The position numbers and the translations under genes are program-made. Shown here piece by piece: positions 9,715-32,358 of a DNA stretch of 64,000 nucleotides. The notes beneath the pieces were generated by a model. That model searched no databases. It saw only the letters and a list, made by a program, of their open reading frames with translations, and had not been told where the DNA came from. The stretch's first letter is position 1. Every line of letters begins with the position of its first letter. Source of the DNA: Gammaproteobacteria bacterium (GTDB lineage: Bacteria; Pseudomonadota; Gammaproteobacteria; Steroidobacterales; JABDMI01). The DNA is taken from positions 1,171 to 65,170 of the forward strand of contig JABDMI010000071.1 of NCBI GenBank assembly GCA_013001575.1. The letters are read 5' to 3'.

Positions 9715-12534
9715 TCAGGCGTAATGGCGCTGCTCACCATCACCATCAACATTGGTGATGCAGCGTTGGCATAATTCCGGATGCTCTGTGGATCGTCCTA
9801 CTTCTGGGCGTCGGTGCCAGCAACGAACGCATTTTTCAGCATCGGTCTTTTTAATCTCTACCTCAAGTTGCTCGCTGCCATTATTCAGTTCCGCGCCAGA
9901 GGTGATAAACACAAAGCGCAATTCGTCACCCAACTGCTCCAAGGCTTTATATTGCTCGCCATTCGCGTTTATGGTTATGTCGGCTTCCAGAGCCGAACCA
10001 ATCACACCGGCCGCGCGTTTTTCTTCGAGTGCTTTTGACACTGTGTCGCGAATATCCAGAATAGTGTCCCAATCCTGTTGGGTAGATTCAAGCTCAGGCA
10101 GCTTGTACCAGGTCTCAAGCAAGACCGATTCGCTGCTCGCACCCAATTCATGCATGGATGACCACACTTCTTCGGCAGTGAAGCTCAATATCGGGGCAAT
10201 CCACCTGACCAGCGCATGCGTAACGTGGTACATCGCGGTCTGGGCCGAACGCCGTGCCTGTGATTTAGTTTGTGTGGTGTATAAACGGTCTTTTAAGATA
10301 TCCAGATAAAAACCGCCAAGATCCTCGCTACAGAATTTATGCAGTTTTTGGTAAATATGGTGAAACTCATAGGTCTCGTAAGCCGTGGTCAATTCTGTGT
10401 GCAATTCACTGGAGCGTTTTAATATCCATTTATCCAATGAGAGCAATTCATCCAGGGCAACGGCATCCTTTTCAAAGTCGAAGCCATGCAAATTACCCAA
10501 CAAGAACCGAATGGTATTGCGAATGCGACGATACGAATCGGCAACACGTTTGAATATTTCATCCGATACCGTGATCTCGCCGCTGTAATCGGCTGACGCA
10601 ACCCATAAACGAATAATGTCAGCACCCAGGGTATTGGCCACTTTTTGTGGTGCGATCACATTACCCAGCGACTTGGACATTTTGCGCCCGTTCTCATCCA
10701 CGGTAAATCCGTGCGTGAGTACCGCTTTGTAAGGGGCCTGATCCTTCATCGCCATACTGGTGAGCAAAGAGGACTGGAACCAGCCACGATGTTGGTCAGA
10801 ACCTTCCAGATACAGATCGGCGATATGCGCTTCCAATCCATGAGTTTTGGTCACACTGTGATGCACAGTACCCGAGTCAAACCACACATCCATAATATCG
10901 GTCGTGCGTTCGTAATTGCCGGTCTCGGCACCCAGTAATTCTTTATCCAGCATCGCAAACCAGGCCTCGATACCACCCGTTTCAACGGCTTGGGCAACCT
11001 TTTCCAGGATGCCTTGGGTATCCGGATGCAACTCGCCGGTTTCATTATGCAGGTACAAGGGAATTGGCACGCCCCAGACGCGCTGGCGCGAGATACACCA
11101 GTCGGGACGACCTTCCACCATGCCATAAATACGCTGCTCACCCCATTCCGGGATCCATTGCACTTTGGGGATCTCTTCCAGGGTGCGTTGGCGCAAGCCG
11201 TTTTGTTCCATGCCCACAAACCATTGCGAGGTAGCACGGAAGATCACGGGCGATTTATGTCGCCAACAATGCGGATAGCTGTGTTCTATTTTTTCAAATT
11301 TAATCAACGCACCAGCATCTTTTAATGCGTCAATAATATTGTCGTTGGCTTTGTATATGTGTTGGCCGGCAAACATTTCGGTAGACGGCAAGTAAACGCC
11401 GTTACCCCCGACCGGATTTTCCAAAGGCAGGTCGTATTTGAGACCCATATTGAAATCGTCATGCCCGTGTCCGGGCGCGGTATGCACGGCACCGGTACCG
11501 GCTTCGGTCGTGACATGCTCACCTAGAATAATTGGCACCTGTCGGGATGCAAACAAGGGGTGTTGCAAAGTAATGTTCTCGAATTTGTCACCGCTTGCTT
11601 GCGCGACCTGCTCAATGGACTCGGCGCCAAAGCGGGCACACACATCCTCGACCATGTCTGTGGCGAGTAATAAATATTCTTTACCCGCATCAGTGGTTAC
11701 GGCTACCAGACTGTATTGTAATTCCGGGTGCAGGGTCACAGCCTGGTTGGCAGGAATGGTCCAGGGCGTGGTCGTCCAGATCGGAACCGAGATTTTGTCA
11801 CTGTCTACGGATTCTATTCCGAAAGCGGTCAGAAACTTTTCAGTGTCAAGCACCGGGAAACGCACATCAATACTGGGGGATACTTTATTTTCGTATTCCA
11901 CTTCGGCTTCAGCCAATGCGGATTGACAATCCAGACACCAATGCACCGGTTTAAAGCCCTTGTACACATGCCCGTTCTCGATGATCTTGCCAAGCGCCCG
12001 GATTTGCGCCGCCTCGAACTTTGGATCCATGGTCAGATAAGGGTTTTCCCAGTCCCCGAGCACGCCAAGGCGTTTAAAATCTTTGCGTTGTCCATCAATC
12101 TGTTTAGCCGCATACTCACGACAGGCTTTGCGAAACGCATTGGCGTCGAGCTTTTGCCCGGGCTTGCCGTGTTTTTTCTCGACTTCACGTTCGATGGGTA
12201 AACCGTGACAATCCCAGCCGGGAATGTACGGTGTATCGAACCCGTCGAGTGAGCGCGACTTGACGATGATATCTTTTAAGATCTTGTTGACGGCATGCCC
12301 GATGTGAATATTGCCATTGGCGTACGGCGGTCCGTCCGTGAAATAGAATTTCGGGCGCCCTTTGGACACTTCACGCATACGCGCGTAGATATTTTGCTCT
12401 TCCCAGGTTTGTAATTGCTTAGGTTCACGCTGGGCCAGATTGGCACGCATCGGAAAAGCGGTTTTGGGAAGATTGATGGTATCTTTGTAGTTCTTCCCGG
12501 ACGCTTGTGCGGGTTTTTTGTCGTCTTTACTCAC
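9715..12534 (-). CDS. ileS: Isoleucine--tRNA ligase
   Basis: 939 aa with class I HIGH (NGNIHIGH) and KMSKS motifs and a C-terminal Zn-finger Cys cluster. Confidence 0.97.
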
Positions 12535-13608: not shown

Positions 13609-15165
13609 TTAGTGTTGTAAAAAATGACCTGGACGAATGCCCATAATAAACAAACTGGCAAAATAACATAGCACCCCGGCCCCGATCACCGTAGCCAGAC
13701 GTGATATTCGGCTCAAAGCCCCGGCGCTGGCCCAGGAATCGAGACTGCCAGCCAGGAATGTAATTAACAGACCCATCAGTACACAGGCAAGAACAACTTT
13801 CGCCAAATACAGCCACCAGCCTTTTTGCGGTGTATAAATTCCTCTTTTGCGTAAGCCGCGATACAGTAATACCGCATTCACAAAGGCTCCCAGGGACGTG
13901 GCCGCCGCCAAACCCGCGTGTGGCGCGGTTGTCCATTTACCAGTTAAAAACAAACTCAGCACAATTACATTCAGGCTGATGTTTACCACAATAGCGACAA
14001 TACCGATCTTCACCGGTGTCACCGTATCTTGTCTTGAGAAATACCCCGGTACCAATACTTTGACCAAGACAAAGCCGAACAAACCAAGACCATAAGCCCA
14101 CAAACTGTAACGCGCCATACGCATGTCATAAGTGGTGAATTCGCCGTACTGGAACAAGGTGGCCAGCATGGGTCCCGCCAAACACAATAAACCGACCGCG
14201 GCGGGTAAACAGATTACAAAGGCCATACGCAGCGACCAGTCCAGGGTACGGGAAAATTCCTGCGTGGAATTTGACGAAAACTGGCTCGACAATCTTGGTA
14301 AGGCTACCGTTGCTATGGCAATACCAAAGATCCCCAAAGGAAATTCCATGAGTCGATTTGAATAAAATAACCAACTGATACTTCCAGTTGCCAACAAGGA
14401 GGCGATTGCTGTATCAATGATCAAATTGAGTTGGGCGACGGAAGATCCAAAGATTCCGGGAATCATCAAGCGAAAGATCTTTCGAACTCCGCTGTCTTTC
14501 CAACCCCATTTTGGCCTGGGCAATAAACGTAATTGACGTAAGAATGGAAATTGGAATACCAACTGCACGATCCCGGCGAGAAAAACCCCAATGGCGATGG
14601 CGTAAACCGGGGTCTCGAATTGTGGCGAGATGTATAGAACAAACCCGATCAAAATCAGATTTAATAGTATCGGGGTAAAGGCCGGTACGGCAAAGCGGTT
14701 ATAGGTATTCAGAATTCCGGCAGCCAATGCGGTTAGGGAAATGAATAACAGATAAGGAAACATCCAGCGCAACATGCGGATCGAGAGTTCCCATTTTTCC
14801 GGCTCGTCGTAAAATCCGGGCGCGAAAAGCAAAATAAACACCGGAGCCGCTAACACTCCGAGCAAGGACACGATAAAAAGAATGAACCCCAGGGTGCCGG
14901 AGGTTTTGTCGACCAGGTCTTTTACCGCGGCATGGTCTTGTTTTTCCTTATACTCATTCAACACCGGAACAAAGGACTGTAAAAAGGCGCCTTCCCCAAA
15001 TAATCGGCGGAAATAATTCGGGATCGAGAATGTCACTTTGAACACATCCATCATGTAAGTCGCGCCAAAAAAGCGCGCGAACAGCACATCCCTGACCAGT
15101 CCCAGGATGCGAGAGATGAAGGTCCATCCGCCAAATACGGAGGCTGATTTGAGTAATTTAGGCAT
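13609..15165 (-). CDS. murJ: Lipid II flippase MurJ (MviN)
   Basis: 518 aa polytopic membrane protein with the MurJ N-terminus (SRILGLVRDVLFARFFGA); adjacent to and divergent from rpsT, as in many gammaproteobacteria. Confidence 0.9.
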   Translation of the reverse strand: MPKLLKSASVFGGWTFISRILGLVRDVLFARFFGATYMMDVFKVTFSIPNYFRRLFGEGAFLQSFVPVLNEYKEKQDHAAVKDLVDKTSGTLGFILFIVSLLGVLAAPVFILLFAPGFYDEPEKWELSIRMLRWMFPYLLFISLTALAAGILNTYNRFAVPAFTPILLNLILIGFVLYISPQFETPVYAIAIGVFLAGIVQLVFQFPFLRQLRLLPRPKWGWKDSGVRKIFRLMIPGIFGSSVAQLNLIIDTAIASLLATGSISWLFYSNRLMEFPLGIFGIAIATVALPRLSSQFSSNSTQEFSRTLDWSLRMAFVICLPAAVGLLCLAGPMLATLFQYGEFTTYDMRMARYSLWAYGLGLFGFVLVKVLVPGYFSRQDTVTPVKIGIVAIVVNISLNVIVLSLFLTGKWTTAPHAGLAAATSLGAFVNAVLLYRGLRKRGIYTPQKGWWLYLAKVVLACVLMGLLITFLAGSLDSWASAGALSRISRLATVIGAGVLCYFASLFIMGIRPGHFLQH

Positions 15166-15304
15166 AGCGTTTTTTAGTTGCCGATTATAGCCGCATAAGT
15201 CCTTGTTTTAATTGATTTTTAACCTTGAGCTGATTTGCGCCGCTAATTAAGCCCGTATTTTCGATCAATCCTATCGATTATTTGAGATTACTCGCCACTA
15301 GCGG

Positions 15305-15333
15305 TTGATTTCCAAGCGCATTTTACGCATAAT
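15305..15333 (+). promoter_or_regulatory. Candidate sigma70 promoter for rpsT
   Basis: TTGATT (15305-15310), 17-nt spacer, CATAAT (15328-15333), about 80 nt upstream of the rpsT GTG. A 7-bp inverted repeat GCGCATT/AATGCGC overlaps the spacer and -10. Confidence 0.4.
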
Positions 15334-15415
15334 GCGCGGCTATTTTATGAGATTTGTGTGATGTTTAGGTGTTACAGCAGATCTGCAAACACTCGAACAC
15401 TCCCAGGAGCAATTT

Positions 15416-15676
15416 GTGGCAAATATTAAATCAGCAAAAAAACGCGCGATCACTTCAGAAAAACGTCGCATACGTAACGTAAATCTGCGTTCACGTTTCC
15501 GTACCGCATTAAAGAAAGTCGTCAGCCTGATCGACGCCGGCAATAAAGCCGAAGCCAAAGTTGCGTATGACGAAGCCGCCCCGTTGATCGATGGCGCAGT
15601 CACCAAAGGGCTTATTCACAAGAATAAAGCGGCCCGTCATAAAAGCCGTTTAAATACCAAGATCAAAGCTCTGTAA
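15416..15676 (+). CDS. rpsT: 30S ribosomal protein S20
   Basis: MANIKSAKKRA... is canonical S20; GTG start. Confidence 0.95.
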   Translation: MANIKSAKKRAITSEKRRIRNVNLRSRFRTALKKVVSLIDAGNKAEAKVAYDEAAPLIDGAVTKGLIHKNKAARHKSRLNTKIKAL

Positions 15677-15702
15677 TTTTTTAAATTCAGTGCAATTCAA
15701 AA

Positions 15703-15727
15703 GACCGGCTTATTGCCGGTTTTTTTG
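15703..15727 (+). terminator. Rho-independent terminator after rpsT
   Basis: Hairpin GACCGGC-TTATT-GCCGGTT followed by a T run (15720-15727). Confidence 0.8.
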
Positions 15728-15782
15728 TGCCCGAATTTTTTATACAAACATCCATTAGAGCAAATTATTTTATAATCGCCCG

Positions 15783-16940
15783 ATGAAAAAACTCCTCGCC
15801 GTTTTACTCATCGCTGTCATTGCATTCCTGTCAATCCTGGTCGCAACAGACCGTGCGTATTTAATCACTGCAGCTCGCACCATCTGGTTACGTGGACAAA
15901 CCGACGCGGGCATTCACGATTTCACCGTACAACCCTTGCGCGCCATTGAAGCCGGAGAACCTCAACCTTGGCCAAAACACAAAAACTATAACCGGGTGCC
16001 ATTGTCCGAGGAAATTCTAGAACATCATCAAACCTACCAAAGTACAGCATTCTTGATCGCCAAAGACGGAGAGCTGATCTCTGAACATTATTTCAATGGC
16101 AGTCATGCCGAAGATGTCTCGAGTATCTGGTCGATCAGCAAATCATTTATCACCTTTGCAATTCTCAAGGCCATTCAAGATGGCCTGATCGACAACATCA
16201 ATGACCCGGTTAAAAAATACATCCCCGAATGGCCGGTCGAACAAAGCCCTACCCTGACCTTACATCACCTGGGTTCAATGTCGGCCGGATTGTATTGGAA
16301 AGAGATGGACCATTCGCCGTTTTCCCTGATCGCCAAATTCACCTTCCATGATGATATTTCCCGCTTGTCAGTACACGAATTACCGGCGACAGGAGTACCG
16401 GGCGACATTCAGCATTACAACTCCGGAGGTACACAGTTACTGGGTACGACTCTGGCACGGGTATTGAATGGCAAGACTATTTCGGACTACATTTCAGAGT
16501 CGTTCTGGAAGCCTCTGGGTATGCAGCAAGACGGCTATTATGTTCTGGATAAAAAGGGTGGTAATGAACGCGTGTTTGGCGGCATAGTTGCTGCGGCAAA
16601 AGACGTCGCGAAATTTGGTCAATTATTCTTGAACGAAGGTCAATGGAATGGAAACAGGATATTGGCTAAACAACATATCGATATGATCAAACAGATGCCG
16701 TACAACAACAAGACCTATGGATACGGCATTTGGGTAGGCGAATATAACGGGGATCCTGTGTATAACATGCAAGGATTTTTAGGGCAGTTTAATATCATTT
16801 ACCCCAAAGAAAATTTACTCATTACCCGTCTTGGGCACCAAATGCTGATGAAGGAAGACCTGGAATCATCTCACCCGCAGGTTGATATTTTGTTGCAAGA
16901 AGCGCTAAGAATCGTCGCTGAAAACGAGAAAATGGACTAG
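15783..16940 (+). CDS. Membrane-anchored serine hydrolase (beta-lactamase/transpeptidase-like family)
   Basis: N-terminal TM helix. SxxK motif (SISK) and a YNSGG motif typical of class C beta-lactamase-like esterases. Confidence 0.75.
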
Positions 16941-20051: not shown

Positions 20052-21092
20052 TTATAAAGCCCCTTCGAGTTCCAGTAATTTCTGCTTACGCCACAAGCCA
20101 CCACCATATCCGGTGAGTTTGCCATCAGCGCCGATCACGCGATGACAGGGAACAATAATGGCAAATCGATTATCCCCGTTCGCCGTCCCGACCGCCCTGA
20201 CCGCCTTGGGGTTTTTGATGGCTATGGCTTGTTGCGCGTAAGTTCGGGTTTCACCATAGGGAATCTTCAATAAAGCTTTCCATACCTGTTGCTGAAACTC
20301 CGTGCCCATCAATGCAATAGGCAGATCAAAACTTTTGCGTGTTCCATTAAAGTATTCTTGCAATTGTTGTTCGGTGGTTTGCATGACTGGATGCTCACCA
20401 GGTACGTAATAACAGCTGGTGTATTTACGCACCCGCTTGATCTGGGTTTCCAACATGCGCCGGTCAACAAATTCCAGAAGATGCAGACCATCATCATTGG
20501 CACAGATCAACATCGGTCCCAATGGCGTCATGATCCGGTTGACCCACATCCGGGTACAGTCTCTGGATTGTCCGGGTGGATTACCAAAATACTTTTTAAA
20601 CGCAGTGCGAAAACCACTTTCCGATTCGTACCCGGACACATCCATTGAGCGCGTGACATTTTCACCCAGTTTCATTTGTTGCATCGCTTCCCCCAAGCGT
20701 CGCAAACGCGAGTAACCATGAAAGGTCATGTTGTAGTGTTTTTGAAACCAGCGTCTTACCGCCGCGGGCTGTAAGCCTATTTCGCGTAATTGCCAGTCTT
20801 TCCAGCGTTTTTGCGGGTCCCTCTCAACCAAAGTTAGCAACTTTTGAATATCTGGCGGAATCTCATCCGTGGCTTGCAAGGGAGAACAGCGTTTGCAGGG
20901 GCGATATCCGGCGCGTATGGCCTCGCTGACGTCGTCAAAGAATTCGATATTCTTTTCCAGGGGTTTACGCGCCGTACAAACCGGCCGACAAAAGATACCG
21001 GTAGTTTTGACCCCGGTAATAAAAACTCCGTCAAACGCACTGTCGCGCTGCATGAAAGCTTCCAGCATGGTGTTTTGGCTTAATTGGTTCAT
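20052..21092 (-). CDS. ada: Bifunctional Ada: methylphosphotriester-DNA methyltransferase/AraC-type regulator plus O6-methylguanine-DNA methyltransferase
   Basis: N-terminal Zn-Cys motif (FCRPVCTARKP...CKRCSP), AraC HTH region, C-terminal PCHRV active site. Confidence 0.9.
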   Translation of the reverse strand: MNQLSQNTMLEAFMQRDSAFDGVFITGVKTTGIFCRPVCTARKPLEKNIEFFDDVSEAIRAGYRPCKRCSPLQATDEIPPDIQKLLTLVERDPQKRWKDWQLREIGLQPAAVRRWFQKHYNMTFHGYSRLRRLGEAMQQMKLGENVTRSMDVSGYESESGFRTAFKKYFGNPPGQSRDCTRMWVNRIMTPLGPMLICANDDGLHLLEFVDRRMLETQIKRVRKYTSCYYVPGEHPVMQTTEQQLQEYFNGTRKSFDLPIALMGTEFQQQVWKALLKIPYGETRTYAQQAIAIKNPKAVRAVGTANGDNRFAIIVPCHRVIGADGKLTGYGGGLWRKQKLLELEGAL

Positions 21093-21179: not shown

Positions 21180-21863
21180 ATGCTTGAGACCTCGAAACCT
21201 GAAAAATGTGCAGTAATCGTGTTTGCCAAACGCCCACGAATCGGGCAAGGCAAGCAGCGACTGGCAGCCGAAATTGGCCAGCAAGCGGCGTTTGAAGTTG
21301 CTACTTTATTATTAGAACAGACCTTGGGCATGCTTGAGCAATGGCAAGGCGCATTAGTTGTCTCGCCGTCTGAAATTGAGGATTCTGATTGGGCAAGCCA
21401 GCTTTTGCAACGACCTGTGATTGTGATCCCGCAACATTCCGGTGGTTTGGGTGAGCGTTTACAACAGATTGATAATGAAGTTCGCCTTTTGGGTTACAGT
21501 AGTCTTATCTTTATCGGAAGCGACGCACCTTTGTTAAGCGTGGAACAGTTAAGGTCGGTGGAAAAGAATCTGGATAACTACGCCCAGGTTTTTATACCGG
21601 CACAAGATGGTGGCGTTACCTTAATGGCCAGCAATAAACCCTGGATGAATTTGGAATCGGTTTCCTGGAGCACAGATAAAGTTTTTAGCCAATTGAAATC
21701 TATGTGCATCAAGCAAGGTCTTAATCTGCAAATTCGGCCTAGTATGTATGACCTCGATGATCTCGACGCCTGTCAACAGTTTTTAAGCCGGGCTGATTTT
21801 GCAGACAACCCAAGTAAAGTCTTTGACAAAAAATTAAACACTATTCTGGATACGTATGCGTAA
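21180..21863 (+). CDS. DUF2064/TIGR04282-type glycosyltransferase-like protein (rSAM/selenodomain-associated transferase 1; arsenosugar-cluster associated)
   Basis: AVIVFAKRPRIGQGKQRLA N-terminus typical of DUF2064. Start moved to the ATG at 21180 to avoid overlap with ada. First gene of a tightly packed cluster ending in arsM-arsS. Confidence 0.7.
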   Translation: MLETSKPEKCAVIVFAKRPRIGQGKQRLAAEIGQQAAFEVATLLLEQTLGMLEQWQGALVVSPSEIEDSDWASQLLQRPVIVIPQHSGGLGERLQQIDNEVRLLGYSSLIFIGSDAPLLSVEQLRSVEKNLDNYAQVFIPAQDGGVTLMASNKPWMNLESVSWSTDKVFSQLKSMCIKQGLNLQIRPSMYDLDDLDACQQFLSRADFADNPSKVFDKKLNTILDTYA

Positions 21864-22614
21864 AAAACACATCTTTGCTTTGATTATTCTGGTGCTGCTG
21901 GCTCTCGCCATATGGCAACTGCCGGTAAAAACTTACCTGGAACAAGCCTTACTCTGGGTGGAAGCCAATCAAGGCCTGGCCTGGATCGTGTTTGGCGTTT
22001 TGTATATTTTAGCTATCGTTCTACTCTTACCGGCTTCCCTGTTCAGTCTTGCGGCGGGCTATTTATTCGGTTTACTGCAGGGCTGGCTGCTGGTTGTGGT
22101 TACCGCAACCATCGGAGCGAGTCTTTCCTTATTGGTAGGACGGAGTTTATTACGTGGCTGGGTGTTGGGGCGTGCGCGTGATATGCCCAATTTTGCAAAT
22201 CTTGATGACGCGGTGTCTAAAAAAGGTTTTTTGATCGTGTTTTTAACCCGACTTTCACCAGTGTTCCCGTTTTCCCTGATCAATTATGTGTATGGCGTGA
22301 CTAAAATAACGCCCCGCGATTACACCATCGCGACTTTTTTCGGGATCATGCCAGGCTCTCTGTTGTATGTGTATTTTGGCACCACAGCGAAAAATCTGCA
22401 GGAAGTTCTGAGTGGCAATGTTGAAACCTCGTCAGGCCAGCAATGGTTTTTGTATGCAGGCTTAGTCGCTACTTTGATATTAACCATCGTGATCACGCGA
22501 ATAGCCAAACATGCTCTGATCCAGGCCGCCCATATTGAACCTGCCCCTGGAGTAGAACATGAACCTGAACTTGAACCTGAAAATAAAAACCAAACTGAAC
22601 AACAGACCCAGTAG
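21856..22614 (+). CDS. TVP38/TMEM64 (DedA-related) family membrane protein
   Basis: Polytopic membrane protein with the characteristic LFSLAAGYLFG and RLSPVFPFSLINYVYG motifs; overlaps the upstream gene by 8 nt. Confidence 0.8.
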   Translation: MRKKHIFALIILVLLALAIWQLPVKTYLEQALLWVEANQGLAWIVFGVLYILAIVLLLPASLFSLAAGYLFGLLQGWLLVVVTATIGASLSLLVGRSLLRGWVLGRARDMPNFANLDDAVSKKGFLIVFLTRLSPVFPFSLINYVYGVTKITPRDYTIATFFGIMPGSLLYVYFGTTAKNLQEVLSGNVETSSGQQWFLYAGLVATLILTIVITRIAKHALIQAAHIEPAPGVEHEPELEPENKNQTEQQTQ

Positions 22615-22632
22615 TCGATCCAAGGACAAAAC

Positions 22633-24093
22633 ATGACGCCCGAACACATTATTTCACGCACGACTTCCGATGCCGAATGGAAAAGCTTGATCTTTCCGCA
22701 TGATTATCAAAATCCGATACCACAAGACAAGTATCATTTAGTTGTCATCGGCGCGGGTCCCGCCGGTCTGGTAACCGCCATTGGAGCGGCCGGTCTTGGT
22801 GCCAAGGTCGCCTTGATCGAAGCCAAGGCCATGGGCGGCGATTGCCTGAATGTAGGCTGTGTGCCCTCCAAGGCCTTACTGGCGGCGGCAAAAAAAGTAA
22901 AAAACGGAAAACTCAGTCCGGAAAAGGCTTTTGACTGGGTGCATCAGGTACGCGCGAATATTTCGCATCACGACTCGGTCGAGCGTTTTAGTGATGCCGG
23001 GATCGATGTTTTCCTTGGTCGGGGCAAATTTACCGATGCACACACCGTAATGGTCGGTGAGGCACAGCTCAAAGCCAAAGCCTTTGTTATCGCCACGGGC
23101 TCCGAACCCTTTGTACCGCCCATAGCCGGGCTGGAATCTGTTGCAGTACACACCAATGAAAACATTTTTGACCTGCAAACCGCGCCCAAGTCCATCGGAA
23201 TCCTGGGTGGCGGCCCGATCGGATGTGAAATGGCACAAGCCTTTGCGGATCTCGGCAGTGAAGTGCATTTGTTTGAGATGGCCGAACAAATTTTAATTCG
23301 CGAACATCCGGAAGCGGCCAAACTGGTCAGCGACAGTCTTGAACAACGTGGCGTACACTTGCAATTGGGTGAAGCTGTTCGACAACTTGCGCCCTCTGAG
23401 AATGGAATTCTGGTCACGGCCGGCGACACATCGGTGGAGGTTGAATGTGTATTGGCTGCGGTGGGCCGTAAAGCCAATTTCCAGCAATTGGACCTGGATA
23501 AGGCGGGTGTAGAAACTCACAAACGTGGCATTACAGTTGATTCGCATTTTCGCACGTCGCAAAAACACATTTTTGCCATCGGAGATGTGAGCAGCAAATA
23601 TCAATTCACCAATTACGCCGACGCCCAGGCGCGCGCAGTCATTCAAAATGCCCTGTTCCCTGGCAACAGCGCGACCAATACCGACCTATTGCCCTGGTGC
23701 ACTTACACCAAACCGGAAATTGCCCGCATCGGACTGGACGCAGCGGATGCCAAAGAGCGCGGAATTGAAGTGGATACCTATCGCTACGACTGGAAAGACT
23801 CTGACCGTGCCCAAACCGAGGATGACAAGCTTGGTTTTGTCGAAGTGCTAACCAAAAAAGGCAGCGATAAACTGCTTGGCGCAACCATAGTCGGTTCCGA
23901 TGCCGGTGACCAGATCGCCCCGCTTTCAGTCATGCTGTCTACCGGAACCGGATTAAAAGACTTGAGCGCAAGTTTGTTCTGTTACCCGACACGGAGTGAA
24001 TATTTGAAACGCTTATCCGATGCGTTCAATAAAACGCGTTTGACGCCGACATCCGCCAAGCTATTAAAATTTTGGCTCGATAAAACTCTCTAG
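22633..24093 (+). CDS. FAD-dependent pyridine nucleotide-disulfide oxidoreductase (mercuric-reductase/dihydrolipoamide-dehydrogenase-like)
   Basis: GAGPAG FAD motif and redox-active CLNVGCVPSK disulfide. No NmerA domain or C-terminal Cys pair, so it is not a true MerA. Confidence 0.85.
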   Translation: MTPEHIISRTTSDAEWKSLIFPHDYQNPIPQDKYHLVVIGAGPAGLVTAIGAAGLGAKVALIEAKAMGGDCLNVGCVPSKALLAAAKKVKNGKLSPEKAFDWVHQVRANISHHDSVERFSDAGIDVFLGRGKFTDAHTVMVGEAQLKAKAFVIATGSEPFVPPIAGLESVAVHTNENIFDLQTAPKSIGILGGGPIGCEMAQAFADLGSEVHLFEMAEQILIREHPEAAKLVSDSLEQRGVHLQLGEAVRQLAPSENGILVTAGDTSVEVECVLAAVGRKANFQQLDLDKAGVETHKRGITVDSHFRTSQKHIFAIGDVSSKYQFTNYADAQARAVIQNALFPGNSATNTDLLPWCTYTKPEIARIGLDAADAKERGIEVDTYRYDWKDSDRAQTEDDKLGFVEVLTKKGSDKLLGATIVGSDAGDQIAPLSVMLSTGTGLKDLSASLFCYPTRSEYLKRLSDAFNKTRLTPTSAKLLKFWLDKTL

Positions 24094-24094
24094 C

Positions 24095-24778
24095 ATGCGG
24101 GTCAGTATTATTATCCCAACCCTGGACGATAATCCGGCCTTGGTGAATTTATTGCAACAAATTAGCAACTGGCCTAATCAAGCCTATGAAGTGCTGGTCG
24201 TGGATGCAAAGTATGATGAAGCCTGTTCGACAATTTGCGAGCGCTATGCCGCAACGCACATTAGCTTTAATAAAAATCGAGGCGCACAACAAAGGCATGG
24301 CGCCGAAAAAGCCTCTGGCGATGTCCTGTGGTTTTTACACGCCGACGCAACACCATCACCAGACGCCCTGTTGGAAATCCAGACCATTATTGGATCGGGA
24401 GCGATGGGCGGTTTTTTCCGTTTTGCCTTTAATACTGAAACGACTTCATGGACCCAAAAACTCATTTCCGCATTCACCAATTGGCGCAGTAAGCATTTTA
24501 TTGCCTATGGCGATCAAGGAATTTTCGTAGACGCGAAATTTTATGCCACTTGTGGCGGTCATTCTGACCAAGCCCTGTTTGAAGAGGTGGCGCTGATCAG
24601 GGCTTTGCGCAAAAGCGGAAAACTCAAGCCTTCCGACCTCTCGATACGCGTGTCCACACGGCGCTGGGAACAAGACGGCTACTGGAAACGCACCGTACAA
24701 AACCGCTTTTTGGCCCTTGCCTATCTTTTCGGAGTCCAGGCCGATACCCTGGCCAGCTGGTATAAGCCAAAGCGCTAG
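24095..24778 (+). CDS. Family 2 glycosyltransferase, TIGR04283-type (rSAM/selenodomain-associated transferase 2; arsenosugar-cluster associated)
   Basis: MRVSIIIPTLDD GT2 N-terminus, DA..D region, about 227 aa; starts 2 nt after the previous stop. Confidence 0.75.
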   Translation: MRVSIIIPTLDDNPALVNLLQQISNWPNQAYEVLVVDAKYDEACSTICERYAATHISFNKNRGAQQRHGAEKASGDVLWFLHADATPSPDALLEIQTIIGSGAMGGFFRFAFNTETTSWTQKLISAFTNWRSKHFIAYGDQGIFVDAKFYATCGGHSDQALFEEVALIRALRKSGKLKPSDLSIRVSTRRWEQDGYWKRTVQNRFLALAYLFGVQADTLASWYKPKR

Positions 24779-24869
24779 AGCAACAAGGTACAATCGCGGG
24801 TTTCCGCTAACAATTTAGATAGCCTAATTCGATTAGCCAATAATAGTTAATTTAAAAAATACAAATATC

Positions 24870-25967
24870 ATGAATGCAAAAATACTAGAACCCGACCAAC
24901 TTAATGAAACAGACGTCAAAGCCGATGTGCGTGAGTATTACGGCGAGACTTTACAAGGAAGCCAGGACCTGCAAACCAATGCCTGTTGCGACACCGACCA
25001 GATGCCCCGCTACATTAAGGATTGTCTGGCCGATGTGCACGATGAAGTCTTGATGCGTTACTACGGTTGTGGACTGGTCGTACCGACTGAACTGGAAGGC
25101 AAAACCATTCTGGATCTTGGCTGCGGTGCCGGTCGTGATGTGTATGTGCTATCCAAACTGGTTGGCGAGCACGGCAAAGTCATCGGCGTGGACATGACGC
25201 CCGAACAACTGGCCGTGGCGCGCTCGCATCAACAATACCATGCCGACAAATACGGCTATGCCAAAAGCAATGTGGAGTTTCACCAAGGCGATATCGAAAA
25301 ACTGGATGCCTTGCCTATCCCGGATGGCAGCGTTGATATCATCGTGTCTAACTGTGTGATCAATTTGGCCCATGACAAACCCGCCGTATTGCAACAAGCC
25401 TATCGATTATTAAAAGATGGCGGTGAGATGTATTTTTCCGATGTGTATGCAGACCGCCGCATTCCACTGGAATTGCAACAAGACAAGGTTTTGTACGGCG
25501 AATGTTTATCCGGCGCCATGTACTGGAATGATTTCCAGAACTTATCCAAACAATGCGGATTTTTAGATCCTCGCATTGTGGAAGACCGCAGACTGACTAT
25601 TGAAAACCCGGAACTGGAAGAACGAATTGGGCAGATCAAATTCTACTCGGTCACTTATCGATTGTTTAAACTCGCTGGCCTGGAACCGGCTTGTGAAGAC
25701 TATGGTCAATCGGTGGTATACAAAGGTTCTATTCCGCAACAAAAGCATGGCTTTTTTCTGGATGCTCATCATTTGATCGAAACCGGCAAACAGTTTTCGG
25801 TCTGTGGCAATACCTATGACATGTTGAAACTCACACGCTTCTCAGAACATTTTGAGTTTTATGGCGATCGCTCCAGGCATTTTGGTATTTTTCAAGGTTG
25901 CGGCACCGAAGTCCCATATGCCGCGGCGGCCAATGCCGATGCTGAGTCTGGCGGAGACTGTTGTTAA
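24870..25967 (+). CDS. arsM: Arsenite S-adenosylmethionine methyltransferase-like protein
   Basis: Class I SAM motif ILDLGCGAGRD; conserved Cys residues including NACCD near the N-terminus and a C-terminal GGDCC; immediately followed by the radical SAM gene. Confidence 0.8.
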   Translation: MNAKILEPDQLNETDVKADVREYYGETLQGSQDLQTNACCDTDQMPRYIKDCLADVHDEVLMRYYGCGLVVPTELEGKTILDLGCGAGRDVYVLSKLVGEHGKVIGVDMTPEQLAVARSHQQYHADKYGYAKSNVEFHQGDIEKLDALPIPDGSVDIIVSNCVINLAHDKPAVLQQAYRLLKDGGEMYFSDVYADRRIPLELQQDKVLYGECLSGAMYWNDFQNLSKQCGFLDPRIVEDRRLTIENPELEERIGQIKFYSVTYRLFKLAGLEPACEDYGQSVVYKGSIPQQKHGFFLDAHHLIETGKQFSVCGNTYDMLKLTRFSEHFEFYGDRSRHFGIFQGCGTEVPYAAAANADAESGGDCC

Positions 25968-26924
25968 GTGACAATCATGCTGGATAAAGTAAAAAACGAT
26001 CTGATCGACAATTTAAATTCTTCCCGCGAGAAGTCCTGGCACACCACGCCCCTGGGAGACCCCAGAGGTTACATTCGTCCGCGCGAACTCAAAGAGTTAT
26101 GGTTTCATACCGGTACCGCCTGTAATCTGGCTTGTCCGTTTTGCCTGGAAGGGTCTAAACCCGGTGACACAAGACTCGATCGCATCACTCTGGAAGATGT
26201 GAAGCCTTTTGTCGCCGAAGCGCTTGAACTGGATGTGGAAAAATTTTCCTTTACCGGGGGTGAACCGTTTATTGTGAAACAAATGGTCAAAATACTTGAT
26301 CATTGCCTGCAATTTAAACCGTGCATGGTTTTGACCAACGGAACCGAACCTGTTCTAAAACGCCTGGATCAAATTGCCACCTTGCAAAATGCGCCACATG
26401 ACGTCTCTTTTCGGATCAGCATAGATTATCCTGACCAAAAACGGCATGACGCCGGGCGTGGAGAGAATTCCTATGCCCAGGCCTGGCAAGGCTTGCAAGC
26501 CTTGCATCAATTGGGTTTCAATGTGTCACTCGCACGGCAATTGGAAAAAGATGAAAACACCCAAGCCGTTGATAATCAGTATCGTGATATTTGCAAATCG
26601 TATGGTTTGCCGGAAGACATAACGATTGTGGCTTTTCCGGATTTTGCTTTACCCGGTTCAATGCCCGAAGTGCCCTTTGTGACCGAATCTTGCATGACCA
26701 CCTATCAAAATGAAGCCAGCCGCATGGAGTTCATGTGTGCCTTCAGCAAAATGATCATCAAAAAAAATGCCACCATGCGAATTTATGCTTGCACCTTGGT
26801 GGATGACGATGACGCTTATGATCAAGGCACCTCACTCAAACAAAGTCTGATCGAACCCGTTTCGATGAAACACCATCGCTGTTACAGCTGCTTTGCTTAC
26901 GGAGCTTCTTGCTCGGAATCTTAA
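25968..26924 (+). CDS. arsS: Radical SAM/Cys-rich domain protein (ArsS-type, arsenosugar biosynthesis)
   Basis: CNLACPFC radical SAM triad; C-terminal Cys-rich tail HHRCYSCFAYGASCSES. GTG start abuts the arsM stop (alternative ATG at 25977). Confidence 0.8.
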   Translation: MTIMLDKVKNDLIDNLNSSREKSWHTTPLGDPRGYIRPRELKELWFHTGTACNLACPFCLEGSKPGDTRLDRITLEDVKPFVAEALELDVEKFSFTGGEPFIVKQMVKILDHCLQFKPCMVLTNGTEPVLKRLDQIATLQNAPHDVSFRISIDYPDQKRHDAGRGENSYAQAWQGLQALHQLGFNVSLARQLEKDENTQAVDNQYRDICKSYGLPEDITIVAFPDFALPGSMPEVPFVTESCMTTYQNEASRMEFMCAFSKMIIKKNATMRIYACTLVDDDDAYDQGTSLKQSLIEPVSMKHHRCYSCFAYGASCSES

Positions 26925-27062: not shown

Positions 27063-27105
27063 AAAAATACATATATGAATTAATTTAACTCATATATGTA
27101 TTTTT
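27063..27105. repeat. Perfect 16-bp inverted repeat (candidate operator or AT-rich terminator)
   Basis: AAAAATACATATATGA (27063-27078) and TCATATATGTATTTTT (27090-27105), 11-nt spacer. Lies between the arsS stop and the 27175 ORF. Confidence 0.9.
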
Positions 27106-27174: not shown

Positions 27175-28041
27175 TTGTCTGATAAAAATATTTTGTCATA
27201 TATGTTTAAATTCAACCCAGTTATGACTTTAGACATTTACAGATCAATTATCCGAGCTTGCCCGGTTCTTATGCGGCCAATCATCCGCATTTTGCTGCGT
27301 GCCGGGATCAACTATAAGCAATTTGCAAAAATTACCCGTGAGGTTTTTGTGGATGTTGCTTCTGAAGATTTTGGCATCAGTGGTCGTAAAACCAATATCT
27401 CCAGAGTCGCCATCCTGACCGGAATAAGCCGTAGCGAAGTCACCAAAATACGCAAAAAACAGGAAGAATGTGGCGAGATAGAAATACCGCAAACCGTGAA
27501 TAACGCGGGCCGCTTATTGTCTGGCTGGCACGTAGACAAAGAATTTCTTGACCAAAATGGCAAGCCATTAATTCTCACTGTCGATGGCGACGAACCTAAT
27601 TTCACTTCATTAATGAACAAATATGGTGGTGATATCCCCGCAACCGCCATGCTGAAAGAATTAAAGCAAGTATCGGCGATTGCAATTAATGATTCAGGTG
27701 AAATAAAAGTCTTACAGAGATATTTCATGCCCATGAATTACGACGAAAACAGGATTTTTTCACTGATCGATGATTTTGTTGACCTTGGCAATACTGCACA
27801 CCATAACTTTACTCGTGACATTGATGGTGAATCTCGCTTCCAGGTAAAAGTTACTAACGATTATGTCAGTCTTGCCGCGTTACCAGAGTTCAAAGTCATG
27901 GTCGAAGAAAAATGCACGGCGCTACTCGAAGATTTCGATGACTGGTTAGCAGAACGTGAGATTGACCCTTCAACGGCTATTGCAGAGAAACAACAGATCA
28001 AGTTGGGACTAGGCATGTATTTCATTCAAGAAAATAAATAA
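27175..28041 (+). CDS. Hypothetical protein with predicted N-terminal HTH-like region (possibly DUF6502-like)
   Basis: Long uninterrupted ORF in AT-rich DNA. The segment RKTNISRVAILTGISRSEVTKIRKK looks like a helix-turn-helix. The start is uncertain (TTG 27175 or ATG 27202). The family assignment is from memory only. Confidence 0.6.
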   Translation: MSDKNILSYMFKFNPVMTLDIYRSIIRACPVLMRPIIRILLRAGINYKQFAKITREVFVDVASEDFGISGRKTNISRVAILTGISRSEVTKIRKKQEECGEIEIPQTVNNAGRLLSGWHVDKEFLDQNGKPLILTVDGDEPNFTSLMNKYGGDIPATAMLKELKQVSAIAINDSGEIKVLQRYFMPMNYDENRIFSLIDDFVDLGNTAHHNFTRDIDGESRFQVKVTNDYVSLAALPEFKVMVEEKCTALLEDFDDWLAEREIDPSTAIAEKQQIKLGLGMYFIQENK

Positions 28042-28100: not shown

Positions 28101-28391
28101 ATGTTTATCAGAAACAAAAAAACCATCAAAACATTACTAGTTTTATCACTCGCACTTGGCCTGTCCGGCTGTAATTATGAAACTGCGGCATGCATTCAAA
28201 GTGTAATGACCCACAATTCTAAAATAATCAAAAATGGAAAGATTATCAAGAACGGAAAAATTATAAAGAATGGAAAAGCAAGCTCAAATCCAGCTCCATT
28301 ATCTTACAGTTCTTGCATGGCCAGCTCTGAAAGTGGTAACTCAAAAATTATTAAAAACGGAAAAATCATAAAGAATGGAAAAAGTAGATAA
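28101..28391 (+). CDS. Small lipoprotein with five KIIKNG hexapeptide repeats
   Basis: Signal peptide with lipobox LSG/C (Cys24). Repeats KIIKNG x3 and x2, each preceded by NS. SD-like AAGGTG upstream and a strong terminator downstream. All nucleotide differences among the repeats are synonymous. Confidence 0.7.
   Translation: MFIRNKKTIKTLLVLSLALGLSGCNYETAACIQSVMTHNSKIIKNGKIIKNGKIIKNGKASSNPAPLSYSSCMASSESGNSKIIKNGKIIKNGKSR
28221..28274 (+). repeat. Three tandem 18-bp coding repeats (KIIKNG x3)
   Basis: aaaataatcaaaaatgga / aagattatcaagaacgga / aaaattataaagaatgga. Confidence 0.95.
28344..28379 (+). repeat. Two tandem 18-bp coding repeats (KIIKNG x2)
   Basis: aaaattattaaaaacgga / aaaatcataaagaatgga. 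Confidence 0.95.
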
Positions 28392-29732: not shown

Positions 29733-30719
29733 TTAAATACGCTCTACAGGAAATGCCATTACATCTTTAATCGAGTTTTTTTGCAAGGCCAACATGATCA
29801 AACGATCAACCCCCAAGGCAACCCCCGCACACTCTGGCAAGCCGGAACGCATGGCCTCGAGTAAATACTTGTCTACAGGCATTGGCGATTTTCCAAGTGC
29901 CACACGCCGTTGATTATCCTGTAAAAACCGTTGTGCCAACAATTCGGCATCCTGTACCTCGTCATAGCCATTGGCTATTTCAACGCCCTCCACAAAGACC
30001 TCAAAACGTGCCGCCACATTACGCCCTTGTGCATCTTTCTGGATCTTGGCCAAGGCCGCTTGTGAGGCCGGGTACCCCTGTATAAGCGTAATTCGTCGTG
30101 AAGCTTCTGATGCTGACCTTAGATTTGGGAACACCAAGGTGCTGACCAATAGATCGAGACAAGAACTAAAGTCATCGGTCAGACCACCCGGAATATCAAT
30201 GTGTTTCTGATTCAGCACTTCTTGAATTTCACTCACACTGGTATCAAACACATCTATGCCAGTGTACTCATGCACAACATCCGCATAGCTATAGTGTTGA
30301 ACCTCAACATCACAATCCATGATCTCACGGGCCAGTTCTATCACTTCATGCGCAAGATCCTTGATCGAAAACCCAATTCGATACCACTCCAGCATAGTGA
30401 ATTCGGGATTGTGCTTTTCGCCACTTTCACCCTGCCTGAATACCGGGCCAAGATAGAAACAATCCCCGATGCCAGCTGCCAACAGGCGTTTCATCGGGTA
30501 TTCGGGCGAGGTGTGTAAAAACGTTTTTCCGGACAAAAGTTTTACCGGAATACTGTCGATATGGACTTCGGTCACACTCGATGAACTCAGGCATGGAACC
30601 TGCACTTCGAGCACATTGCGCGCAGCAAAAAAAGCACGAATATTTTGCAATATCCGCGCTCTGTGTTTAAGGGTTTGCAGCGACGCCGTGGGTCGCCAAA
30701 GCTCAGACTCGAATGTCAT
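29733..30719 (-). CDS. epmA: EF-P lysine34 beta-lysyltransferase (PoxA/GenX)
   Basis: Truncated class II LysRS-like catalytic domain (FTMLEWY, GVALGVDRL); directly downstream of efp. Confidence 0.9.
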   Translation of the reverse strand: MTFESELWRPTASLQTLKHRARILQNIRAFFAARNVLEVQVPCLSSSSVTEVHIDSIPVKLLSGKTFLHTSPEYPMKRLLAAGIGDCFYLGPVFRQGESGEKHNPEFTMLEWYRIGFSIKDLAHEVIELAREIMDCDVEVQHYSYADVVHEYTGIDVFDTSVSEIQEVLNQKHIDIPGGLTDDFSSCLDLLVSTLVFPNLRSASEASRRITLIQGYPASQAALAKIQKDAQGRNVAARFEVFVEGVEIANGYDEVQDAELLAQRFLQDNQRRVALGKSPMPVDKYLLEAMRSGLPECAGVALGVDRLIMLALQKNSIKDVMAFPVERI

Positions 30720-30722
30720 GCC

Positions 30723-31292
30723 TCAAGATTTGGCTCGCGAAGAATATTCACCGCTGCGCGTATCCACACGGATCACTTCACCTTCATCCACAAACAAGGG
30801 AACTTGCACAACCGCGCCGGTTTCCAGGGTAGCGGGTTTGGAGCCGCCTTGTGCGGTGTCACCCTTCAGTCCGGGATCCGTTTGGGTAATTTTGAGCTCG
30901 ACAAAATTGGGAGGCACGACGGTGATCGGGTTTCCATTCCACAAGGTAACGGTACACATGTCTTCTTCGAGTAACCATTTGGCCGCATCAGCAACAGCAT
31001 TTTCATCGGCACCAAATTGTTCAAATGTATTTGGGTCCATGAAATGATAAAACTCACCATCGTTATACAAATATTGCATATCGGTTTCCATTACATCAGC
31101 CGCTTCCACCGATTCACCAGATCTAAAGGTTTTTTCAATTACGCGTCCATTTTTCAGGTTGCGCACCCGCACGCGACTGAAGGCTTGACCTTTTCCAGGC
31201 TTAACAAAGGTGTTTTCTACGATTGTATATGGGTCGCCGTCGAGCATGATCTTGAGACCACCCTTGAATTCATTGGTACTATACGTAGCCAT
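30723..31292 (-). CDS. efp: Elongation factor P
   Basis: [19 protein letters not shown]...VKPGKGQAF (modifiable Lys in the PGKGQ loop). Start at the internal ATG with GGAG SD; the ORF-track N-terminal extension is rejected. Confidence 0.95.
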
Positions 31293-31323
31293 TATTTCTC
31301 CACATGACAGATTGAAAAAAGCC

Positions 31324-32358
31324 ATGATAACGCCTTTAAGCAATAAACGCCTGATAAATAACACTGCTTGGTCTAAAAAACATACCACAGACTGGCAAGC
31401 CCAGATGCGCGATGCGGTGACAGAACCAACAATGCTTTTAGATTTATTGGATATACCTCATGCATTACTAACTAAAGCCAACCAGGCGCATGCCTTGTTT
31501 CCGCTGAAAGTTCCGAAGGCGTATGTGTCACGCATGCAAAAAGGGAATATCAATGACCCGCTGTTACAACAGGTTCTACCGCTGGGTACGGAGACCGACG
31601 AGCATCCAGATTTCACCCAAGACCCGGTGGCCGACCTGCAACACAATCCTGTCCCGGGTATTGTGCATAAGTATTCGGGTCGGGTCCTAATGATTACGAC
31701 CGGGGCGTGTGCCGTGCATTGTCGCTATTGCTTTCGTCGCAATTTTCCCTACTCGGAACAAAGTGCCGCGCGTCAAGGCTGGCAAGGTGCACTGGATTAC
31801 ATTCGAGCTGACAAAAGTATTCACGAAGTGATCTTGTCGGGTGGCGACCCCTTATCTTTAAGTAATAACAAACTGGATAATTTGTTCACTGAACTTGATA
31901 ACATCACGCACCTGAAAACAATCCGTTTGCACACACGTCAACCCATCGTATTACCGGATCGTATTGATACCGGATTCTTGCAATTAATTTCTCGCCAGAC
32001 TAAAAACCTCGTCATGGTCTTGCACGCAAATCATGCCAATGAAATTGATGATACGGTGCGGGCTGTGTGTGAGCAATTACTCGCGCAAGGTGTAACTATG
32101 TTGAATCAGTCTGTATTGCTCAGAAATATTAATGATGAACCAGAGACATTGATTGAATTAAGTCATGCCTTGTTTAGTTGCGGGGTTTTGCCCTATTATC
32201 TGAATTTACTGGACCAGGTCAGAGGGGCAAGCCATTTTGCGGTATGTCAGACCCAAGCCAAAGAAATCCACACCAGTATGCAAAAAATTCTTCCTGGATA
32301 TCTGGTTCCCAAATTGGTCAAGGATTCACCCACAATCCCATATAAAACCTGGCTTTAA
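31324..32358 (+). CDS. epmB: EF-P beta-lysylation protein EpmB (lysine 2,3-aminomutase-like radical SAM)
   Basis: [11 protein letters not shown] radical SAM motif. The N-terminus lines up with my recollection of E. coli EpmB when started at 31324. Divergent from efp. Confidence 0.9.

Follow-up and report, generated by a model that had tools for sequence, protein, structure and literature searches.

We identified six co-directional open reading frames (ORFs) at positions 21180–26924 (+ strand) of a 64,000-nucleotide stretch of contig JABDMI010000071.1 (assembly GCA_013001575.1, positions 1,171–65,170), which belongs to a marine gammaproteobacterial metagenome-assembled genome (MAG). This whole stretch is called the window below, and gene positions are given in its coordinates. 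The last ORF encodes an enzyme of the radical S-adenosylmethionine (SAM) type, here abbreviated rSAM, and the ORF before it the arsenic methyltransferase ArsM. Judged by its sequence, rSAM lies outside the family of the arsenosugar enzyme ArsS (TIGR04167) and belongs to a large, unnamed family that occupies the slot of ArsS in similar gene clusters. From genomic context and gene fusions among its relatives we lean, without great confidence, towards reading the locus as a two-module operon, a variant of the ArsS-associated arsenosugar cassette, in which rSAM would be a functional analogue of ArsS.

Much of the arsenic chemistry of the sea concerns arsenosugars and their lipid forms, the arsenosugar lipids, which are major arsenic species there. 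To our knowledge, the only known enzymes of arsenosugar biosynthesis are the first two, ArsM and ArsS, and these are known only from a cyanobacterium. According to published accounts of ArsS from Synechocystis, the enzyme combines a 5'-deoxyadenosyl radical with trivalent dimethylarsenic, DMAs(III), to give 5'-deoxy-5'-dimethylarsinoyl-adenosine (DDMAA), and arsS and arsM are transcribed together. The ArsS of Synechocystis is the only one for which this reaction is established. The literature background on both enzymes in a preliminary description of the window agrees with these accounts. The cassette, the arsM/arsS pair and the arsenosugar label of the glycosyltransferase in nr are already known. 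We found no second widespread radical SAM family in the position of ArsS in NCBIfam release 20, Pfam or the searchable literature, and no dissection of the cassette into core and optional genes in the searchable literature.

The operon and its gene products

The operon begins with a gene for a DUF2064 protein (21180–21863, ATG start; a TTG at 21084 is an alternative start), which is followed by genes for a DedA/VTT (TVP38/TMEM64) membrane protein (21856–22614), a flavin adenine dinucleotide (FAD) disulfide reductase of the class I FAD/NAD(P)H pyridine-nucleotide type (22633–24093), and a family-2 glycosyltransferase (GT2; 24095–24778). An AT-rich seam of 91 nucleotides (24779–24869) separates this accessory module from a second module consisting of arsM (24870–25967), which encodes an As(III) S-adenosylmethionine methyltransferase, and the rSAM gene (25968–26924). 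The junctions are, in order, -8, +18, +1, +91 and 0 nucleotides. Recalculation reproduced the 8-nucleotide overlap and the gaps of 1, 0 and 91 nucleotides given in the preliminary description, which had left the 18-nucleotide gap between the VTT and reductase genes unlisted. Its six + strand ORFs were recovered at the same positions, as were the motifs it quoted, namely GGDCLNVGC in the reductase (C71/C76), GGDCC at the C-terminus of ArsM, and CYSCFAYGASCSES at the C-terminus of rSAM. The rSAM gene can start with a GTG (25968), which has a GGAG 12 nucleotides upstream, or with the ATG (25977) chosen in the public annotation, which gives a protein of 315 amino acids. The seam holds a single 9/12 promoter-like match (24816–24844); promoter-like sites in the gap region number 6 versus 11.4 in shuffled sequences, and this deficit is evidence neither for nor against an internal promoter. 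The GC content of the cluster (48.3%) is so close to that of the window (47.7%) that it bears no compositional trace of recent transfer.

All proteins were compared with the NCBIfam release 20 and Pfam profile libraries using curated cut-offs, with Pfam matches listed at E≤1e-3. The family of rSAM yields 3387 matches at E≤1e-5 in 90% clusters, and 70 and 450 representatives in the 50% library at E≤1e-30 and E≤1e-10, respectively. Relatives are encoded in at least 598 stretches of species-representative genomes, with Neptuniibacter, Motiliproteus, Endozoicomonas, Nitrosomonas, anammox bacteria and Deferribacter among their hosts, and every source names them 'radical SAM protein' or gives them a generic automatic label. 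In 36 diverse members the three cysteines of the CX3CX2C motif (C52, C56, C59) and G97-G98-E99 are invariant, the GGEP motif is conserved, and so are five C-terminal cysteines (C257, C275, C305, C308, C315). In addition to the PF04055 match, the AlphaFold2 (AF2) model of rSAM, which has a predicted local distance difference test score (pLDDT) of 92.9, assigns the protein to the twitch/SPASM class, with a predicted partial TIM barrel and a C-terminal Cys-rich domain of beta-hairpin and helix. Foldseek comparison of the model with the PDB, which has no ArsS structure, returned BlsE (5e-11) and SkfB (6e-11), and also SuiB and EpeE.

A full-length profile-profile comparison (hhalign) of the rSAM and ArsS families covers 276 columns with an E of 4e-21, and both MAFFT and hhalign place the five C-terminal cysteines in the same columns (MC…C…(H/R)CxxC…GxSC). 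The final cysteine of rSAM corresponds to the selenocysteine in the GxxU motif reported for TIGR04167, members of the ArsS family being selenoproteins in some lineages. An AF2 model of ArsS (pLDDT 83) likewise has SkfB, BlsE, EpeE and SuiB as its nearest PDB folds. In both models the C-terminal elements follow the same order of helices, MC, beta-hairpin, Cys, CxxC helix and GxSC tail.

The methyltransferase is a genuine ArsM-type enzyme, as had been proposed. It matches the solved Chlamydomonas ArsM (PDB 5evj) over residues 13–360 with an E of 3.7e-110, as well as PDB entries 4fr0, 4kw7 and 5eg5 over the full length with an E of about 1e-93, and its cysteines 39/40, 67, 162 and 212 align with the four As-binding or disulfide-cascade cysteines of the solved protein. 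These we take to correspond to C44, C72, C174 and C224 of CmArsM. The window protein falls below the cut-offs of two short NCBIfam models, NF008823 (198 bits versus 263) and NF038099 'AsSugarArsM' (102.4 bits versus 400). The ArsM-like methyltransferase of a real ArsS cluster (locus L091, described below), which shares 58% identity with the window ArsM along its whole length, the terminal GDCC included, also scores below both (177 and 103 bits), and these models therefore under-call this ArsM clade.

Among the accessory proteins, the DUF2064 protein is predicted to have a CofC/MobA-like nucleotidyltransferase fold. It scores 62 bits on PF09837 (cut-off 25.8) and 25 bits on PF01983 (CofC), and weakly matches PDB 3cgx, a 'putative nucleotide-diphospho-sugar transferase' (E 6e-5). 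It is TIGR04282-like, narrowly missing the cut-off of that model (124.9 bits versus 134, model positions 1–186 of 189); the Neptuniibacter counterpart scores 125.1 bits. The identity of the DedA/VTT protein is borne out by PF09335 (95.5 bits, gathering threshold 33.9), and that of the disulfide reductase by Pyr_redox_2 (218 bits), Pyr_redox_dim (86 bits) and the CxxxxC motif. The reductase is below the cut-offs of NF004991 (553 versus 620) and of the MerA model TIGR02053 (333 versus 454). Its best solved match is MerA (PDB 5x1y, E 4e-66), with the tyrosine of its 'YPT' motif aligned with a tyrosine of MerA. The family of cluster reductases keeps C71 and C76 without exception and conserves both YPT and a C-terminal extension (…NRTRLTP…W); the only conserved cysteines are those of CxxxxC and C198, with neither an extra Cys pair nor a C-terminal CC. 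The GT2 is a member of TIGR04283, as expected, at 196.7 bits (cut-off 182) over the full model (1–221 of 221). It scores 53.8 bits on PF00535, weakly matches dolichol-P-mannose synthase (PDB 5mlz), and is labelled in nr as a 'TIGR04283 family arsenosugar biosynthesis glycosyltransferase'. We found no functional study of the TIGR04282, TIGR04283, DUF2064, VTT or reductase genes in the searchable literature, and the question raised earlier about the roles of these four accessory genes stands.

Gene context and fusions among relatives

We scanned the loci of rSAM homologues in 80 species genomes using a seed alignment of ten sequences from closer relatives. The proteins encoded at the 80 loci share 55% or more identity with the window rSAM, so the counts describe this closer part of the family. 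Loci with at least 5 kb on each side of the rSAM gene (47) were treated as complete. DUF2064 and GT2 genes are each present in 37/47 of these, VTT genes in 26/47, reductase genes in 23/47, and genes for ArsM and for 5'-methylthioadenosine (MTA) phosphorylase in 18/47 each. Because the same genes surround rSAM homologues in dozens of species genomes, the arrangement is more than chance. ArsM is encoded in 27 of all 80 loci, and in 16 of these 27 its gene stands immediately upstream of the rSAM gene and shares its strand. The phosphorylase of a Neptuniibacter cluster passes the cut-off of the MTAP model (281.4 bits versus 274.85).

The two modules also occur separately. Many relatives have DUF2064-VTT-reductase-GT2-rSAM without arsM, the GT2 gene abutting that for rSAM (offset about -700), and the nearest rSAM clade outside the group of the window (L005, L008, L012) has only arsM-rSAM. 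Both arrangements are joined in the window and in two relatives with 85% identity (L003, L004), and the 91-nucleotide gap coincides with the seam. The occurrence of arsM is patchy across the rSAM tree, even inside Neptuniibacter; it is an optional module.

Several of these genes are fused. ArsM::rSAM and rSAM::ArsM fusions with a full-length ArsM part occur in three phyla (Deferribacter thermophilus, a deltaproteobacterial MAG and Brocadiales), and their ArsM halves are 47–50% identical to the window ArsM. Other fusions of rSAM are DUF2064::rSAM (P0175), Pyr_redox::rSAM, Metallophos::rSAM and rSAM::HD_3, the last with a 5'-deoxynucleotidase-like domain. Of 43 cluster-associated reductases, 18 carry a VTT domain fused to their N-terminus, and PGAP names such proteins 'bifunctional TVP38/TMEM64 family protein/FAD-dependent oxidoreductase'. 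This bears out the hint at such fusions in the preliminary description.

Clusters with a real ArsS have the same partners. A plasmid of Acinetobacter portensis (L091) carries arsS, a VTT::FAD reductase fusion, DUF547, TIGR04283, TIGR04282, the ArsM-like methyltransferase, PiT and mtnP, and a plasmid of Burkholderia glumae (L090) carries arsS together with MTA phosphorylase, TIGR04283, TIGR04282 and VTT::reductase genes. Marinobacterium sediminicola (L092) has arsS, VTT::reductase, GT2 and DUF2064, while Microbulbifer (L093) has PNP, arsS, VTT, reductase, GT2 and DUF2064. The two radical SAM families do not share any of the loci examined: none of the 80 window-type loci has ArsS, none of the ArsS loci from the same scan (L089–L091) has a window-type rSAM, and no second rSAM is listed in the gene tables of L092 and L093. 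Species of Marinobacterium differ in this respect, some having ArsS and others the window-type rSAM. The comparison divides the cassette into a core of rSAM, DUF2064, GT2, VTT and reductase and an optional set of ArsM, MTA phosphorylase and phosphate transporters.

Phosphate-type transporters are embedded in two of the clusters. A PstS/PstC/PstA/PstB-like ATP-binding cassette (ABC) system lies between the rSAM and VTT::reductase genes of one locus (L088:10801–14176), and a PiT transporter gene follows the ArsM-like gene of the Acinetobacter ArsS cluster (L091:11414–12526). Such positions fit the entry of arsenate through phosphate systems.

Other neighbours recur less widely. The four accessory genes can make up a unit on their own, since at L087 the VTT and reductase genes stand divergently beside DUF2064-GT2 while no rSAM gene is present within 8 kb; the neighbours there are another GT2 gene and one for a GT87/MptA-like membrane glycosyltransferase. 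Genes for DUF547 proteins turn up repeatedly next to those of TIGR04283/TIGR04282 in ArsS-type and rSAM-less loci (L087:6186–7004 and 10929–11867; L089:7969–8700; L091:8210–9004) and in 4/47 window-type loci. Two loci (L086, L088), from a Nitrosomonas MAG and one other genome, have a pair of divergent genes beside a DUF2064-GT2-ArsM-rSAM cluster. One encodes a 704-amino-acid protein with the DinB_2, FGE-sulfatase and methyltransferase architecture of the ovothiol synthase OvoA (L086:4976–7090, L088:4999–7113; 85% identical between the two loci), and the other a class I/II aminotransferase (L086:3813–4979, L088:3806–5002). Their presence may point to a thiol cofactor used by the pathway, or may be coincidental. 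The plasmid ArsS islands (L090:3402–4516 and 14399–16814; L091:2291–3416) include thioredoxin and CcdA, an extracytoplasmic function (ECF) sigma factor with a zf-HC2 anti-sigma factor, and haloacid dehalogenase and AhpD-like genes. That of B. glumae adds a bufferin-like DUF692/DUF2282/DoxX set. Together these genes point to an island with a wider role in metal or redox stress.

Proposed pathway and competing readings

In the pathway that we propose, the second module (arsM and the rSAM gene, joined with a 0-nucleotide gap) would act first. ArsM would methylate As(III) to methylated trivalent arsenic, and rSAM would cleave SAM reductively and transfer the 5'-deoxyadenosyl radical onto trivalent (di)methylarsenic, forming a C5'–As bond and yielding a 5'-deoxy-5'-arsinoyl-adenosine. 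The first module (DUF2064-VTT-reductase-GT2) would then process this arsinoyl nucleoside. Removal of adenine, a step that MTA phosphorylase may perform in many related clusters, would give 5-arsinoyl-ribose-1-phosphate; for the window operon the enzyme would be encoded outside the window. The CofC/MobA-like DUF2064 protein could convert the 5-substituted ribose-1-phosphate to a nucleoside diphosphate (NDP)-sugar, and GT2 could transfer the arsinoyl sugar from the NDP-sugar to an acceptor, forming a riboside. The DedA/VTT protein and the MerA-like reductase may work as one membrane-associated unit that supplies reducing equivalents, or that delivers or reduces the arsenical. We infer the rSAM reaction, all steps of the first module, and arsenic as the substrate where arsM is not nearby. 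The comparison of clusters suggests the order of the downstream steps, with phosphorolysis followed by nucleotide activation and then by glycosyl transfer.

The placement of rSAM in the role of ArsS draws on the shared partners of the two kinds of cluster, among them the closely similar ArsM of L091, on the lack of any examined locus with both types, on the twitch-type models of both proteins, and on the gene fusions, in which the joining of ArsM to rSAM points to the ArsM product as the substrate of rSAM.

Several findings weigh against this placement. rSAM scores 42.6 bits on TIGR04167 versus a cut-off of 300, matching profile positions 3–151 of 303, whereas genuine ArsS proteins score 439–471 bits. 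Its sole Pfam match is PF04055, with none to the PF12345/DUF3641 domain that is present in 120/120 ArsS homologues listed. Its identity to the ArsS of the Acinetobacter plasmid (471 bits on TIGR04167) is 23%, over 154 residues of the N-terminal core alone. These three results place rSAM outside the ArsS family and overturn its earlier identification as ArsS, which the preliminary description had made dependent on a match to this model. The best curated match of rSAM is to the Rv1681 family (NF049973), at 112.9 bits versus a cut-off of 380. When the C-terminal profiles of the two families are compared by themselves, the similarity is not significant (hhalign E 0.013, Prob 3.4%); among 20 column-shuffled controls the best reached 0.0018 and the next 0.024, and the column-reversed control reached 0.07. 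Since the C-terminal profiles do no better than shuffles, the significance of the full-length comparison stems from the generic radical SAM core. Common ancestry of the two Cys-rich domains is plausible but unproven, and the description of rSAM as the non-selenocysteine version of a selenoprotein is not established; the C-terminal cysteines are ordered as in ArsS and the similarity of the domains falls short of significance.

The distribution of genes weighs in the same direction. ArsM lies within 10 kb in 38% of the complete loci and is missing in 29/47 (62%), and it is lacking nearby in 4/5 real ArsS loci (L089, L090, L092, L093), so that arsenic may not be the universal substrate. A search of the 64-kb window for MTA phosphorylase, arsR, arsC and acr3 found none of them. 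Where an MTA phosphorylase does stand beside rSAM, it could just clear 5'-deoxyadenosine. The reaction assigned to rSAM is itself a proposal from sequence context.

ArsM is not nearby in most loci of both radical SAM types. In the main rival explanation, arsenic would not be the primary concern of the cassette of rSAM, DUF2064, GT2, VTT and reductase, arsM would be an occasional add-on, and the term 'arsenosugar' would be over-extended from Synechocystis. The product might then be a 5'-deoxyadenosyl-derived or otherwise modified sugar or a lipid-linked glycan, and the substrate another metalloid or a selenium, tellurium, phosphorus or sulfur species. The ArsM-less loci of both types, the scatter of arsM on the rSAM tree, even in Neptuniibacter, and the DUF2064-GT2-VTT-reductase set without a nearby rSAM (L087) are all consistent with this explanation, as are the occurrence of selenoproteins in the ArsS family and the fact that DedA proteins are known as general membrane or lipid transporters. 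However, every linked or fused methyltransferase is of the full-length ArsM type with As-binding cysteines, and some clusters include phosphate/arsenate-type transporters (Pst in L088, PiT in L091). Moreover, arsM could sit elsewhere in the genomes whose clusters lack it, and the sole member of the wider system known to have been assayed works on DMAs(III). We consider a non-arsenic cassette unlikely, though it deserves to be taken seriously. The frequent absence of ArsM around both radical SAM families also means that the database label 'arsenosugar biosynthesis' may be over-extended.

A second rival would make rSAM a hydrogen-abstracting tailoring enzyme, such as an epimerase, a dehydrogenase or a twitch enzyme forming C–C or C–S bonds, acting on the sugar or nucleotide-sugar of its neighbours or on the ArsM product. 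All of its nearest solved folds are hydrogen-abstracting twitch/SPASM enzymes (the nucleoside-sugar decarboxylase BlsE, SkfB, SuiB and EpeE), its top profile match is the uncharacterized Rv1681 family, and MTA phosphorylase could serve to remove inhibitory 5'-deoxyadenosine. However, modelled ArsS shares the same nearest folds, and fold class therefore cannot separate adenosylating from hydrogen-abstracting enzymes. A role downstream would still require ArsS, which rSAM replaces instead of accompanying, and the direct fusions indicate the ArsM product as the substrate. We find this explanation improbable. A protein maturase for ribosomally synthesized and post-translationally modified peptides (RiPPs), or an activating enzyme, is suggested by the JGI automatic names 'sulfatase maturation enzyme AslB' and 'organic radical activating enzyme' and by the fold likeness to the peptide maturases SkfB, SuiB and EpeE, but was rejected as highly improbable, since no substrate gene was found (genes for precursor peptides, sulfatases and glycyl-radical enzymes are absent from the window and not recurrent in the 80 loci), Pfam shows no SPASM or RiPP-recognition domain match, and the conserved partners are ArsM and sugar-handling enzymes.

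If the rSAM family does perform the ArsS reaction, surveys based on the ArsS model miss many potential producers of arsenosugars, as relatives of rSAM are found in no fewer than the 598 stretches noted above. A further extension of the arsenosugar reading, which we regard as speculative and rather doubtful, would make the VTT protein and the MerA-like reductase an importer and reductase that hands trivalent (methyl)arsenic to rSAM, for example by reducing the pentavalent methylarsenicals DMAs(V) and MAs(V) of seawater. With a cassette that lacks arsM, heterotrophic marine bacteria could then convert the methylarsenicals of phytoplankton into arsenosugars or arsenosugar lipids through a second, so far unrecognized ArsS-like family. 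We know of no bacterial reductase of MAs(V) or DMAs(V) that has been identified.

Flanking sequence and comparison with known systems

An AT-rich hairpin downstream of the rSAM gene (27063–27105, +), with a perfect 16-bp stem and a U-run, is probably the terminator of the operon, as judged by its predicted folding. Its minimum free energy is -18.5 kcal/mol (z-score -6.57), and 0/200 shuffled sequences were equally stable; a rule for GC-rich terminators did not flag it. The near flanks carry obg, rpmA, rplU, ispB and ada on one side and DUF6502, DUF2461, GAF protein, epmA and efp genes on the other. The rest of the 64-kb window is housekeeping, with pilus genes, ispH, lspA, ileS, ribF and murJ also on the obg side and parC/E, ispA, dxs, folE2, rib genes and glyA on the efp side.

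The ada gene (20052–21092, - strand) is divergent from the operon and lies 87 nucleotides from its start. It encodes an Ada-type regulator/O6-methylguanine-DNA methyltransferase with Ada_Zn_binding, HTH_18 and MGMT domains. We rejected Ada as a regulator of the cluster, because it neighbours the cluster only in the two closest relatives (L003 and L004) and the adjacency is thus probably mere local synteny. Directly 3' of the operon lies a gene for a DUF6502 protein (27175–28041, +; 161.6 bits), which is also found beside the cluster in L003 and L004 (67–71% identical) and at no other locus, again probably local synteny. It is followed by an ORF of 96 amino acids (28101–28391, +) with a lipoprotein-type signal (…LSGC) and two arrays of 18-nucleotide tandem repeats encoding (K)IIKNGK. 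No Pfam match was found for this ORF; public assemblies nonetheless call a gene there. Further along (29733–32358) is the trio of epmA (lysyl-tRNA-synthetase-like), efp and an epmB-like gene for beta-lysylation of elongation factor P (EF-P). Apart from the epmB-like gene, with its faint Radical_SAM match, no further gene related to radical SAM enzymes was noticed in the vicinity of the cluster, and the trio is unconnected with the operon.

Among known systems, the Rv1681 family (NF049973) provides the top curated profile for rSAM and for all diverse relatives tested (76–122 bits, in the N-terminal core). However, rSAM is far under its cut-off of 380 and matches profile positions of about 70–240 of 326. 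The reductase resembles MerA, which works with MerT, in carrying a tyrosine (YPT) where glutathione reductase and lipoamide dehydrogenase have a histidine, and in being coupled, and often fused, to a membrane protein. Unlike MerA, it lacks both a C-terminal Cys pair and an NmerA domain, is under the TIGR02053 cut-off, and possesses a conserved C-terminal extension that MerA lacks; its membrane partner is a DedA/VTT protein instead of MerT.

The arsinothricin pathway of Burkholderia gladioli (arsQML) also pairs a radical SAM enzyme, ArsL, with ArsM, and forms a C–As bond from a SAM-derived radical and trivalent arsenic. In contrast to rSAM, ArsL is a non-canonical radical SAM enzyme that uses a 3-amino-3-carboxypropyl radical and acts on inorganic As(III) before methylation. 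The arsQML cluster is without glycosyltransferases, DedA and reductase genes, and the arsinothricin ArsM model, with a cut-off of 500, gives the window ArsM only 151 bits.

The ArsS cassette is the closest parallel in gene content. The window differs from it in that rSAM fails TIGR04167 and is without PF12345, the DUF2064 protein is just under the TIGR04282 cut-off, ArsM is not of the NF038099 'AsSugarArsM' type, and the cluster is without MTA phosphorylase. In ArsS loci too, ArsM, MTA phosphorylase and sometimes a phosphate transporter are optional members. As in the Synechocystis-type arsM-arsS cassette, arsM in the window lies directly upstream of, and co-oriented with, a radical SAM gene for a protein of about 320 amino acids, and as in the TIGR04167/TIGR04282/TIGR04283 cassette the accessory set consists of a DUF2064/TIGR04282-like protein, a TIGR04283 GT2, a VTT/DedA protein and an FAD disulfide reductase. 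rSAM and ArsS themselves share the CX3CX2C motif, five ordered C-terminal cysteines that end in GxSC (GxxU in selenocysteine-containing ArsS), and a twitch-type model.

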